Positions 43,755-47,088 of a stretch of DNA of 64,000 nucleotides are shown piece by piece. Numbering within the stretch: position 1 is the first letter of the stretch; every line of letters starts with the position of its first letter. The stretch lies in assembly GCA_001890965.1 (NCBI GenBank), contig MLAY01000008.1, positions 360,341-424,340 on the forward strand. Direction: 5' to 3'. The stretch is from a marine bacterium AO1-C (GTDB lineage Bacteria > Bacteroidota > Bacteroidia > Cytophagales > Microscillaceae). The position numbers and the translations under genes are program-made. A model generated the notes under the pieces. It was not told where the DNA came from, ran no database searches, and saw only the letters and a program-made list of their open reading frames with translations.

Positions 43755-45416
43755 CTATTTCTTATCTACAATTGTACTAATCTCTGGATCGCCTACAGTT
43801 TCAAGCTGGCGTTCATGGAATGATTCTCCTTTACCGGTTCCATACATAGAGAAGTACCATAATTTATGGTCGGCAAGGCCTTCTAAAGCCATGTAATCTC
43901 CCTGATCGTTGCTTTGCATAATATTCGTTGCAAAATGATAATTATAGCCAGTTTCGCCAGATTGGGTATTATTGGCCTTGGCTTCTTTTTCGTTTACATA
44001 ACGATTGGCATCTACCATAGTAACTCCCTGACCCAAATCGGGGCGAGCAAAAGAGCCTAATCCATATTCCTTATCTACTTGGGCTCGGGCAGTGCCTGAT
44101 AAACTTAAATAATCATTGTAAGCTTTTTCTTCGTCGCTGTAAGCTTTTGCGGGGTATTTGTCCTGCATTATTCTTAGAATGTAATCCCTGATAGTTTTTG
44201 TGGCATCCAGGGTATCTACTGTAATAGAGCCATCCTTGCTTTTGTATACCCGACGAGCACCTCCTGCCCCACTTTGAATACACCCCATAATCAAACGATT
44301 GGCATTTCCACAATCTCTTAGTTTGAGCTTGTCAAATCCTCCATATTTTCTTTCTTCAGTGCTTGATTCATTCGCCATATTTTGGTCTTTGCCCCCTTCT
44401 GTATGCACTGCTTTTATTTTTTTGAAACTCCCTTTGCTTGGATTAGATTCATTCGTAAGAGGAACATTTCCTACTACCAGATCATTGGCTTCGGTCACTA
44501 ATTTCACATAAGATCCTTTAGCAGCAAGCACTTTATTGGCCTTAGTGATGAGGCTTTGGTCAGCCCAGGCTTGTTTTGAATAAGTCCCTAAGCCTTCTAC
44601 CGCCATTTTACCATCATTAGATACCATCAAGGTTTTACGTTTGGGATGACGCCAGCCTTCTTTTTGTCTTTTCAGTTTATTGGGTATCTTCCCTTTAGCT
44701 TCCCGTTTTTTATATTTTGCCTCAAATTTTTCAGTCTGCTTATCATACTTTTGTTTCATCTTTTCGCTGTAAGGATCAGCATCTTTCTGATTTGCCATGG
44801 TTGTGTTATAATCCTCTTCTGACAAATGTCTGAGTTGATCACGCTTGTTGTACATCACATAACGTTGTACTGGTGCGCTTGATGTTTGCCCTCCAGTGTT
44901 GGCTTGCAATGGCTTAGATGAAGTAAGGTCTCCTTTACTGGCTTTATCACCAATATCGTCTGCCTCTTTCTCCAGTTTTGGATCGCTATTAATACCTACC
45001 CCATTATTGGCTTGAAAGTCGGCTTGTACCCGCCCTTGTTTTTGTTGAGCTACATGGGTGAGTTCGTGCCCAAGGTGTTGTTCTTTGCCAGGGGCTAAAT
45101 GCACCTCATTTCCTTGCGCAGTAGCTTCGGCCTTTAACTGAGCAGGCTTGCCAGAATTATAGTGAACTCTAGCATCCGACACATCAGTGCCCATGAGTTG
45201 ACTTACATTTTCTTTGATTTGATATTCGCCAAGTTGGTTTTCTGTCCCCATCAAACGCTTTGTATTGCGCTGTAAAGGCTTTTGTTTAGCTTTATGTCGT
45301 GCTTGCTTCCCTTGTTTTGATTGGACAGGCTTTTGCCTGGATTTAATTGTGGATGTTTGTCGTTGAACAGGTGCTTGATTTGTTGTATCTGTGGATAATT
45401 GCTGAAAAGATTGCAT
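43755..45416 (-). CDS. DUF4157-domain protein (HExxH-like HELTHVAQQ), paralog G
   Basis: No signal peptide; basic Q/K-rich N-terminus; …VHYNSGKPAQLKAEATAQGNEVHLAPGKEQHLGHELTHVAQQKQGRVQ…; conserved C-terminal ~220 aa shared with the next gene (…GYNYHFATNIMQS…LEGLADH.LWYFSMYG…SFHERQ…IVDKK). Start set at MQSFQQ by alignment with paralog F. Confidence 0.65.
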   Translation of the reverse strand: MQSFQQLSTDTTNQAPVQRQTSTIKSRQKPVQSKQGKQARHKAKQKPLQRNTKRLMGTENQLGEYQIKENVSQLMGTDVSDARVHYNSGKPAQLKAEATAQGNEVHLAPGKEQHLGHELTHVAQQKQGRVQADFQANNGVGINSDPKLEKEADDIGDKASKGDLTSSKPLQANTGGQTSSAPVQRYVMYNKRDQLRHLSEEDYNTTMANQKDADPYSEKMKQKYDKQTEKFEAKYKKREAKGKIPNKLKRQKEGWRHPKRKTLMVSNDGKMAVEGLGTYSKQAWADQSLITKANKVLAAKGSYVKLVTEANDLVVGNVPLTNESNPSKGSFKKIKAVHTEGGKDQNMANESSTEERKYGGFDKLKLRDCGNANRLIMGCIQSGAGGARRVYKSKDGSITVDTLDATKTIRDYILRIMQDKYPAKAYSDEEKAYNDYLSLSGTARAQVDKEYGLGSFARPDLGQGVTMVDANRYVNEKEAKANNTQSGETGYNYHFATNIMQSNDQGDYMALEGLADHKLWYFSMYGTGKGESFHERQLETVGDPEISTIVDKK

Positions 45417-45579
45417 GATGTTCTCTATAAGTTTTTGATCTCCTGATTTTACAAAAAAGATCACTTAAATAAAAGGCTATTATCTAAATAACCTTAGGCG
45501 TTTTTAATAAAATGACAAATCAATCATCTATATATCAAGTCAATCTATTTATTATATTTCAGATAAACGCGATTGTTCA

Positions 45580-47088
45580 TCATTTCTTATCTACAATTGC
45601 CGAAGCATTTGGTTTTTGGACTACATCCTCTTGTCTTTCATGAAAAGATTGTCCTTTTTGAGCGCCATACATAGAAAAGTACCATATTTCGTGATCAGCC
45701 AAACCTTCCAATGTCATATAATCATCTCCACTTTGCATAATGTTTGTTGCAAAATGATAATTATAACCATCTTCGTCTGGATTGTCTTCAGTAGACACAG
45801 TTGTTACGCCTTGCCCCAGTGATGGAACAGCTCCGGCATCTAGTCCATATTTTTCATCTATCCGCTTTTTTTCAGCTGGGTCTAATTTTTTATATACCTC
45901 AAATGCCTCCTTAACACCATATCCTTTAGAGTATTCCTTGATTAATATTTTCCTTATCAGCTTCTGGATAGTCTTGTTAGGATCATGGGTTTTTATTATA
46001 GTAGTTCCATCCTTTGTTTTGTATACCCTTCTAATTGGGTTATCGCCCTCTTTGAGCGCACCCATAATCAATTCATTTGCATTGCTACAATCCCGAAGTT
46101 TTACCTCTTTGGTAGTGACAGCTTTCGGTATACCCGCACTCAGGAATACCTTCATATCTTTTGAGGTAGTATTCGCTTTTTCAGTCATGTTTTTAGAAGT
46201 TCCCTTTTTTACAGGTACCACTTTCTTAAAGTCTTTTTGGTAAGGATTGGGAATGGAGTCCCCTGGTATACTTCCTACCATCAAGTCATTGGCTTCACCT
46301 TTTAACTCTACATAAGAACCTTGCTTCTTGAGTGCGTCATTTCCATCATTAATCAAGCCTTGTACTGCCCAGGCTTGAGCAGACTTCTTACCTTTACCTT
46401 CTACCGCCATCTTTCCATCATTTGATATATAGAGTTTTTGACGTTGAGGGTGTCTCCATTTGGTTTGTGGTTTACCAGCACTTTTCTTTCTTTTCTTCTT
46501 GGGTTGTTTCTTTTTACCATATGCTACATATCGCTGTACTGGCGCTATATGATGAGCAATTGAGACACCTTTAGAAATGCTCATTTGTGTAGAATCAACT
46601 TTGCCTTTAGTAGCTTTTTCCCCTATATCATCGGCTTCTTTTTCCAGTATTGGGTCATTGTTAATCCCCACCCCATTGTTGGCTTGAATGGTAGGCTGTA
46701 CACGTCCTTGTTTTTGTTGAGCTACGTGAGTGAGTTCATGCCCAAGGTGTTGTTCTTTGCCAGGGGCTAAATGTACCTCGGTGCCCTGGGCAGTGGCTTC
46801 TGCCTTTAATTGAGCAGGTTTGCTTGAATTATAATGCACTTTAGCATCCGATACGTCAGTACCCATCAATTGGCTTACATTTTCTTTAATTTGCCCCTCG
46901 TTTGACTGATTGCCTTTATTGACTGCACATTTGCGGTTACGCTGTAATGGTTTTTGCTTGGCTTTATGGCGAGGTTGCTTTCCTTGCTTCGATTGAAAAG
47001 GTTTTTGTTTGGCTTTAATGGATGATTTCTTCTGTTGAATTGGTTCTTGATGTGTTGCCTCTGTGGTAATTGGTTTTGAAACTTGCAT
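45580..47088 (-). CDS. DUF4157-domain protein, paralog F
   Basis: Same architecture: basic N-terminus, HLGHELTHVAQQKQGRVQ, variable middle, conserved C-terminal domain. Confidence 0.65.
   Translation of the reverse strand: MQVSKPITTEATHQEPIQQKKSSIKAKQKPFQSKQGKQPRHKAKQKPLQRNRKCAVNKGNQSNEGQIKENVSQLMGTDVSDAKVHYNSSKPAQLKAEATAQGTEVHLAPGKEQHLGHELTHVAQQKQGRVQPTIQANNGVGINNDPILEKEADDIGEKATKGKVDSTQMSISKGVSIAHHIAPVQRYVAYGKKKQPKKKRKKSAGKPQTKWRHPQRQKLYISNDGKMAVEGKGKKSAQAWAVQGLINDGNDALKKQGSYVELKGEANDLMVGSIPGDSIPNPYQKDFKKVVPVKKGTSKNMTEKANTTSKDMKVFLSAGIPKAVTTKEVKLRDCSNANELIMGALKEGDNPIRRVYKTKDGTTIIKTHDPNKTIQKLIRKILIKEYSKGYGVKEAFEVYKKLDPAEKKRIDEKYGLDAGAVPSLGQGVTTVSTEDNPDEDGYNYHFATNIMQSGDDYMTLEGLADHEIWYFSMYGAQKGQSFHERQEDVVQKPNASAIVDKK

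Follow-up and report, generated by a model that had tools for sequence, protein, structure and literature searches.

Two neighbouring genes of the marine bacterium AO1-C, here called F and G, raise the question of what a conserved C-terminal domain does when it is carried behind a DUF4157 module, and of how such proteins would reach their target. The genes lie in tandem on the minus strand of a 64,000-nt stretch of contig MLAY01000008.1, which is referred to below as the window (Table 1). A preliminary description of the locus had recognised F and G as paralogs with conserved ends, a variable middle and candidate catalytic His and Glu residues near the C-terminus. The analysis reported here leads us to propose, with moderate confidence, that F and G are ancient tandem paralogs of toxins associated with an extracellular contractile injection system (eCIS), that they carry a papain-like payload, and that ORF328, the protein encoded immediately downstream of G, is their partner.

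The paralogy itself was borne out by the open reading frames (ORFs), BLASTP, Pfam and a motif check. F and G share 51% identity over their full length (BLASTP, E = 0), and the motifs HELTH, KLRDC, GYNYHFATNIMQS, LEGLADH, WYFSMYG and SFHERQ were all found in both proteins. The N-terminal pattern given as K.KQKP also held, except that G differs from it at one position and reads KSRQKP. No further copy of F was detected in the window by tblastn with F as the query. Neither F nor G was matched in PDB sequences, NCBIfam, PADLOC or PHROGs.

The shared C-terminal domain is present in both proteins, but it is a single domain of about 293 amino acids (aa; F residues 210-502) and not one of about 220 aa as had been described. 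Its family was collected by an exhaustive HMMER search, in which a three-sequence profile was run against the representatives of clusters formed at 50% identity. This search yielded 506 cluster representatives at E <= 1e-3 and 157 at E <= 1e-10; word-indexed homolog searches had returned 1 match and then 21, and the family became visible only by the exhaustive search. Most of the matches hold a WRHP...SNDGxMAVE module followed by a KLRDC...SFHE module, in that order, and the hosts comprise Bacteroidota, cyanobacteria, high-GC bacteria and one haloarchaeon. Across 94-95 members, three residues are invariant, namely C125, H236 and E252 in domain numbering, which correspond to C334, H445 and E461 of F and to C369, H494 and E512 of G. 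A fourth residue, D247 (D456 of F), is conserved in 99% of the members. The invariant His sits in the motif NYHF and the invariant Glu inside LEGLADH. The earlier placement of the catalytic His and Glu in LADH and HERQ did not survive this comparison, as the 95 homologs compared do not conserve the LADH histidine, and SFHERQ keeps its His and its Glu in only about 60-70% of them. The invariant Cys had been overlooked.

AlphaFold2, when supplied with 94 sequences, modelled the domain as one compact 293-residue fold with a predicted local distance difference test score (pLDDT) of 93.2 and a predicted template modelling score (pTM) of 0.91; a model built from three sequences only (pLDDT 38.7) was discarded. 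In the retained model, C125 opens the helix 125-133, H236 lies in the strand 235-244, and D247 and E252 lie in the strand 247-252. The predicted centre, with a Cys at a helix start followed by a His and an acidic residue on successive strands, all conserved in 99-100% of the members, has the arrangement by which papain-like enzymes are recognised. Foldseek returned no match at E < 1e-3 for the model of the C-terminal domain. [quoted passage not shown] An enzyme-like fold, as the preliminary description had anticipated, is thus supported by the structure prediction, and no known non-enzymatic family was matched, but the weak matches point to a papain-like fold centred on a Cys. When the 94 members were compared with Pfam at E <= 5 and at E <= 1e-3, neither PF05257 (CHAP) nor PF00877 (NlpC/P60) nor their kin was among the most frequently matched families. 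A bacterial SH3_3 tail was found in 8 of the 94 members, and in 15 at a relaxed threshold. These data indicate that the domain is uncatalogued and probably a divergent papain-like cysteine hydrolase or transferase that resembles the CHAP and NlpC/P60 enzymes and falls outside both families. A literature search on the domain and on strain AO1-C returned nothing relevant.

The domain is preceded in both proteins by DUF4157, now named eCIS_core (PF13699), which was matched by F with 41.3 bits (E = 1.8e-10) and by G with 43.1 bits (E = 4.9e-11) at a gathering cutoff of 22. The HELTH motif, an instance of HExxH, occupies residues 117-121 in both proteins and is invariant in an alignment of eight close relatives. 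PF13699 was matched in 62 of the 94 family members at E <= 1e-3 and in 71 at a relaxed threshold. Of the 84 representatives that are extended N-terminally by 90 aa or more, 79 have an HExxH motif upstream of the C-terminal domain, including members that Pfam does not recognise as DUF4157. In the proteins as predicted, nearly every copy of the domain is thus joined to an HExxH module.

The divergence between F and G is far from uniform along their length (Table 1). Orthologs of both (F3 and G3) were found at the locus L003, which is fully syntenic and belongs to a Microscillaceae metagenome-assembled genome (MAG), and a further ortholog, P0001, lies on the metagenome contig L001. In the catalytic half of the C-terminal domain (F residues 330-502), F and F3 are 68% identical, G and G3 63%, and F and G 54%. 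Orthologs here resemble each other more than paralogs do, so the duplication that gave rise to F and G is older than the split of the species. Identity within DUF4157 is 84-93% in every comparison of orthologs and paralogs. Synonymous sites are saturated or nearly so throughout; in DUF4157 the proportion of synonymous differences (pS) is 0.62 and the synonymous rate (dS) about 1.3. For DUF4157 the ratio of nonsynonymous to synonymous rates (dN/dS) comes to about 0.04 and for the C-terminal domain to 0.1-0.2, within an overall range of 0.04-0.23. Recent gene conversion was considered as the cause of the near-identical DUF4157 modules of F and G and was rejected, since pS is close to saturation and the identity between species is equally high; the likeness points instead to strong purifying selection. 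The substitution pattern marks both F and G as functional genes. These results agree with the earlier suggestion that the two domains are both functional and selected together, to which the 79 representatives with an upstream HExxH also speak, and they identify F and G as old duplicates with non-uniform divergence rather than recent copies with uniform divergence.

The basic tracts noted earlier in both proteins are real. The first 65 residues carry a net charge of +13 in F and +10 in G and are rich in K, Q, P and S and poorly conserved, and the linkers carry +14 in F and +13 in G. The preliminary description had offered nucleic-acid binding or secretion and packaging as roles for such tracts, and the idea of a packaging signal at the N-terminus agrees with loading experiments on the effectors Cgo1 and Cgo2 of AlgoCIS, in which the disordered N-terminal domain was required for loading (bioRxiv 10.64898/2026.05.27.728243). 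By analogy, the N-terminal tract of about 65 aa, presumably disordered, is probably a system-specific loading sequence. The linker had been regarded as a diversifying region, and this view was not upheld. The long K/E-rich linker of the G type is common to F3, G3 and P0002-P0005 and is the form kept by most close relatives, and the short linker, found in F and P0001, is a deletion. A second variable patch (F residues ~291-329) is a loop specific to the clade, missing from most family members and forming the lowest-confidence part of the AlphaFold2 model. In these alignments, the "variable middle" of F and G resolves into a linker deletion in F and a clade-specific loop.

Motifs of the form P-[ILVF]-Q-[RQS] were observed at residues 16, 30, 47 and 183 of F and 16, 30, 47 and 182 of G. 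Three of them lie in the basic leader, and the fourth is PVQRY, just past DUF4157, of which QRY is invariant in the eight close relatives and forms the majority consensus over 94 members. It is possible that these motifs are processing sites.

The link between this family and contractile injection systems (CISs) comes from its genomic contexts. At two loci, L078 and L082, the family member is embedded in an eCIS operon together with genes for sheath, tube, Pvc16_N, an AAA ATPase, spike (Phage_base_V) and gp25 (GPW_gp25); within the operon, the member separates the genes for the AAA ATPase and DUF4157 from those for tube, spike and gp25. At a third, in Chryseobacterium sp. CF314 (L009), the member follows a CIS tape-measure gene (CIS_TMP) and several effectors and precedes an AAA ATPase gene. 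Its stop codon is the operon boundary given by Geller 2021, and the protein appears in the list of Danov 2024 as a predicted eCIS-associated toxin with a score of 0.979, annotated as "DUF4157" only. The remaining contexts differ: the haloarchaeal member at L081 follows an AAA ATPase gene, the member at L077 stands beside RHS fragments, and those at L075, L083 and L085 are orphans.

These contexts fit what has been published on such toxins. DUF4157 generally serves eCIS toxins as a leader (PMC8213781), and an N-terminal DUF4157 combined with a C-terminal toxin is an established pattern (PMC8213781; PMC11297309). In the published model, loading depends on a disordered N-terminal sequence that is specific to the system, and this is followed by DUF4157, which is optional, and by an effector that varies at the C-terminus (PMC8213781; PMC8894135; PMC11297309; bioRxiv 10.64898/2026.05.27.728243), and the effectors of AlgoCIS were located in the lumen of the tube (PMC8894135). 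In the related Microscillaceae MAG UBA11690 (L006), calpain-like C-terminal domains are attached to a leader that shares 67% identity with the leader of F over F residues 8-160. This reuse fits a shared, system-specific loading signal. It also limits the earlier statement that the locus is unlike a classical polymorphic toxin, which holds for F compared with G but not for the leader, since at L006 the leader carries other C-terminal domains. Large ORFs upstream of the L006 effectors were considered as CIS baseplate genes and rejected, as they match only each other and one effector-like gene. Payload swapping is illustrated separately by Chitinophaga rupis DSM 21039 (L032:7966-15401), in which four consecutive DUF4157 genes share the leader motifs FIQRKCAxCE... 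and FIQKK and have four different C-terminal regions, the first with a LysM-like segment. The DUF4157/LysM/transglutaminase toxin EAT14, tested by Danov 2024, comes from this strain.

A dedicated gene follows the toxin gene throughout the loci examined. ORF328, whose sequence shows 100% identity with BKI52_24350 of marine bacterium AO1-C, carries three internal repeats that each begin with P-x-C, and it had no match in Pfam, NCBIfam, PADLOC or PHROGs. Its family counts about ten known members of about 325 aa, all from Microscillaceae-like genomes. A homolog lies downstream of the gene for DUF4157 and the C-terminal domain in five of five loci examined (the window, L003, L005, L083/L084 and L085), immediately adjacent in four of them and separated in L085 by an insertion sequence (IS) transposase gene; the surroundings of the five loci are otherwise unrelated. 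Outside the Microscillaceae clade, a different kind of gene, 112-136 aa long and homologous among its hosts, was found directly downstream in seven of seven members examined, and the genes often overlap. The small partners share the motif GxY...DGxxVxLEP...RxxxE...GxxH...PC, occur in Bacteroidota, high-GC bacteria and the haloarchaeon, and had no Pfam match; the one from Chryseobacterium has a lipoprotein-like signal. A downstream partner that is conserved in differing contexts is the signature of a toxin-immunity pair, which makes ORF328 a probable immunity protein; that the partner is a chaperone is the less likely alternative. Most likely, it would guard the periplasm of the producer. The comparison of profiles suggests at most that ORF328 and the small partner family are homologous, as discussed below.

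Taken together, the favoured explanation is as follows. The basic N-terminal tract would direct F and G into the tube of a phage-tail-like particle. The DUF4157/eCIS_core module, presumed to be zincin-like and under very strong purifying selection, would sit between this tract and the basic linker, and the 293-aa C-terminal domain would be the toxic payload, a divergent papain-like cysteine hydrolase or transferase. Its putative catalytic centre would consist of the nucleophile Cys (C334 of F) at the N-terminus of a helix, a general-base His (H445) on the following beta-sheet, and the acidic residues D456 and E461 on the next strand; this proposed centre resembles that of the CHAP and NlpC/P60 amidases, as the order and spacing of the residues are the same. 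The substrate may be an amide or isopeptide bond. The stem peptide of peptidoglycan is the leading candidate, on account of the SH3 tails and the exported partners in Bacteroidota, and a cytoplasmic protein or a small-molecule amide are the alternatives. ORF328, an exported three-repeat protein, would be the cognate partner of G and F. Of all this, the data show how the domains are arranged and conserved, the modelled fold, and the genomic links to eCIS operons and partner genes, while loading, enzymatic activity, substrate and immunity are deduced from them.

Several observations weigh against this explanation. Apart from F and G, the window has 47 ORFs that reach 150 aa, and in the 27 of them that were scanned, Pfam detected neither a sheath, tube, baseplate or spike family nor an AAA family of the CIS type. 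Of the published eCIS toxins, 88% are encoded no more than ten genes away from their operon (PMC11297309). The C-terminal domain had no match in Pfam, NCBIfam or PDB sequences for the 94 members, relaxed thresholds included, and the papain-like assignment is drawn from the topology of the model, the residue order and a coherent list of weak matches, without a sequence profile. The partners mostly have a signal peptide in Bacteroidota and lack one in high-GC lineages and in the haloarchaeon, which makes the compartment of action, and hence the substrate, ambiguous; the partners without a signal and the archaeal member favour a substrate other than peptidoglycan. When ORF328 was compared with the small partner family, hhalign aligned the first 26 columns only, with a probability of 0.8-32% and P of about 5e-4 to 0.07, so their homology is suggested and stays unproven. 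Finally, DUF4157 is dispensable for loading in AlgoCIS, and the toxicity of Cgo1 is independent of its metalloprotease motifs (bioRxiv 10.64898/2026.05.27.728243; PMC8894135), which leaves the role of the best-conserved module of F and G unexplained.

The first of these observations is also the starting point of the strongest alternative, according to which the toxin and its partner are as proposed and no eCIS delivers them in this bacterium. F and G would then be orphan effectors that leave the cell via a Bacteroidota T6SS, lysis or vesicles, or remnants of a system that has been lost. The orphan members at L075, L083 and L085, the member beside RHS fragments at L077 and the occasional report of DUF4157 in T6SS effectors (PMC11297309) are in keeping with such a history. 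We nevertheless consider it unlikely. The leader and DUF4157 are under strong purifying selection in paralogs and orthologs, the attachment of the 67%-identical leader to other effectors at L006 argues for a live, shared delivery machine, and three family members lie inside eCIS operons.

The puzzle of the conserved DUF4157 allows a bolder conjecture, which we rate as quite improbable. The zincin and the papain-like domain would form an obligate two-protease effector, in which the zincin cleaves itself at the flanking P-[ILV]-Q-R motifs (three in the leader, and QRY before the C-terminal domain), and this cleavage after delivery would free and activate the cysteine hydrolase; F, G and ORF328 would be a mobile cassette of two or three genes away from CIS clusters. 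If true, a mechanistic role would for the first time be assigned to DUF4157, namely that of a protease that matures injected toxins by cleaving itself.

It is very unlikely that F and G are housekeeping or self-directed enzymes, that is, endogenous amidases or proteases whose pro-domain is a zincin and which might serve in cell-wall remodelling, with ORF328 as a periplasmic regulator or substrate-binding partner or, in a variant, with the small partner as a loading chaperone. Their likeness to CHAP and NlpC/P60 enzymes, the SH3_3 tails of some members, the export of the partner in Bacteroidota and the fact that the function of DUF4157 is counted as unknown would all suit such a role. Yet neither a signal peptide nor a lipobox is present in the sequences of F and G, the family has a patchy, module-like distribution with differing neighbours, members occur in eCIS operons, with one of them predicted to be a toxin, and one member comes from a haloarchaeon, although haloarchaea have no murein. 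The least probable reading is the original one of a metal-dependent or general acid-base His/Glu enzyme with its active site in LEGLADH and SFHERQ and the linker as the diversifying element: both motifs are conserved between F and G and the Glu of LEGLADH (E461) is invariant in the family, but the sole invariant residues are this Glu, the Cys and the His of NYHF, and the linker differs by a deletion in F from a form that the relatives conserve.

Table 1. Positions of the features discussed. Positions are those of the window unless a locus is named; F-G identities are from sliding windows.
Feature	Position	Strand	Size	Description
Gene F	45580-47088	minus	502 aa	ORF; basic N-terminal tract, DUF4157, linker, predicted C-terminal papain-like domain
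F residues 1-65	46894-47088	minus		Basic tract rich in K, Q and P (net charge +13) in which P[ILF]Q[QSR] occurs three times; candidate sequence for eCIS loading; F-G identity in the first 65 residues 40-70%
F residues 66-160	46609-46893	minus		DUF4157/eCIS_core zincin-like module; HELTH (HExxH) at 46726-46740; F-G identity 83-97%
F residues 161-209	46462-46608	minus		Basic linker with conserved PVQRY at 46528-46539, shortened relative to G and most relatives; F-G identity 3-40%, with an indel of ~45 aa
F residues 210-502	45583-46461	minus	293 aa	Single C-terminal domain, starts at WRHP
WRHP segment/module				F-G identity 50-67%
F residues 291-329				Second variable patch; low F-G identity
Final 60 residues				F-G identity ~70-77%
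F putative catalytic codons	C334 46087-46089; H445 45754-45756; D456 45721-45723; E461 45706-45708	minus		
Gene G	43755-45416	minus	553 aa from ATG at 45416	ORF; conserved leader before ATG
G HELTH	45054-45068	minus		
G residues 161-253	44658-44936	minus		Long K/E-rich linker, net charge +13, PVQRY at 44859-44870
G residues 254-553	43758-44657	minus		C-terminal domain, from alignment with F and the family
G putative catalytic codons	C369 44310-44312; H494 43935-43937; D507 43896-43898; E512 43881-43883	minus		
F-G intergenic region	45417-45579	minus		T-rich box and leader GATCAAAAACTTAT directly upstream of the G ATG
Element upstream of F	47089-47140	minus		Resembles that of G by sequence likeness
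ORF328	42766-43752	minus	328 aa	ATG 2 nt past the G stop; signal peptide; three internal repeats of ~100 aa; candidate immunity protein
Small partner genes	L075:11599-11997; L077:6054-6395; L078:11341-11679; L079:11062-11424; L081:11096-11467; L082:11407-11790; L009:10357-10767			
Two DUF4157 proteins with calpain-type (Peptidase_C2) C-terminal domains	L006:7387-9444; L006:9905-12196			At least one has the 67%-identical leader

The start of G was placed with the help of the sequence before it. The longest ORF for G spans 43755-45464 and begins with GTG; the real start is most likely the ATG at 45416, since the same leader (GATCAAAAACTTAT...CATC-ATG) precedes the ATGs of F, G and both L003 orthologs. 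This leader was observed together with a T-rich box about 30 nt before the start codon at 45417-45450 and 47089-47125 (minus strand) and, at L003, upstream of 6661 and 8444, and the combination is common to F, G and their orthologs. It suggests that F and G may each have a promoter of their own that is similarly regulated. A scan for sigma-70 promoters and terminators gave counts no higher than in shuffled sequence.

The stretch directly upstream of F (47436-51760, minus strand) encodes four membrane proteins that are paralogs of one another, with lengths of 345, 327, 179 and 374 aa; the last of them carries DUF4328. The four have in common a soluble module of about 90 aa (YxLRIDxxxQKIxLEKxKxRGxxxFxxT...W) and had no match in PADLOC or NCBIfam. 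The set is syntenic in L001 and L003 and is absent beside the F/G-like genes of L005, L083 and L085.

The architecture of F and G is already known, and the toxin domain and its partner are new. In the survey of Danov 2024, 983 of the 1,130 predicted eCIS toxins that bear DUF4157 had no annotated payload domain. One such "DUF4157-only" payload is now defined by at least 506 clusters, a confident fold model, a testable Cys/His/Glu-Asp centre and a partner gene, which opens this effector family to mutagenesis, toxicity and rescue assays and the identification of its substrate. The domain is also a candidate enzymatic cargo for engineered injection particles, and its near-obligate fusion to an HExxH module makes it a good system for asking what DUF4157 does.

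Among known systems, the effectors Cgo1 and Cgo2 of AlgoCIS come closest, as an adjacent effector pair in a Cytophagia bacterium (2022, PMC8894135; PROCIS preprint 10.64898/2026.05.27.728243). Compared by description and not by sequence, the two pairs have the same plan, with mutually similar disordered N-terminal domains, DUF4157 and a C-terminal domain, and Cgo1 (498 aa) is similar in size to F (502 aa). However, the C-terminal domains of Cgo1 and Cgo2 differ from each other, that of Cgo1 being a predicted metalloprotease, whereas F and G appear to have one papain-like domain in common; and the genes for Cgo1 and Cgo2 lie inside the CIS cluster, whereas F and G lie near no CIS gene detected in the window.

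In the DUF4157-bearing eCIS-associated toxins (EATs) described by Geller 2021 and Danov 2024, too, an N-terminal DUF4157 leader is connected through a long linker to an enzymatic toxin at the C-terminus. One of them, EAT14, which combines DUF4157 with LysM and a transglutaminase-like domain, also includes a domain that is Cys-based and related to the papain-like fold. In microbial transglutaminase the catalytic residues follow the order Cys...Asp...His. The order in F and G is Cys...His...Asp/Glu, unlike that enzyme, and the F/G-type domain differs from the annotated EATs in having no Pfam or InterPro-style annotation and in being accompanied by a dedicated downstream partner gene.

In the CHAP (PF05257) and NlpC/P60 (PF00877) amidases and endopeptidases of peptidoglycan, as in the modelled domain, the nucleophilic Cys stands at the N-terminus of a helix, and one strand bears the His and the next an acidic or polar residue; some family members end in SH3b tails. 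The F/G family differs from them in lacking a profile match and in having an extra sub-domain of about 120 aa (WRHP...SNDGxMAVE) and a helical insert. Being adjacent and exported, the partner in Bacteroidota is reminiscent of the periplasmic Tai immunity proteins of the T6SS Tae/Tai pairs, but in the high-GC and archaeal members the partner has no signal peptide. Finally, a leader, a toxin and a directly downstream partner gene are also found in the polymorphic toxins (Rhs and contact-dependent inhibition, CDI), and the L006 leader on calpain-like domains and the one member beside RHS fragments add to this likeness. Unlike polymorphic toxins, F and G carry the same toxin family with no swap at the C-terminus, and the family to which they belong is held to its HExxH module in nearly all of its members (79/84).

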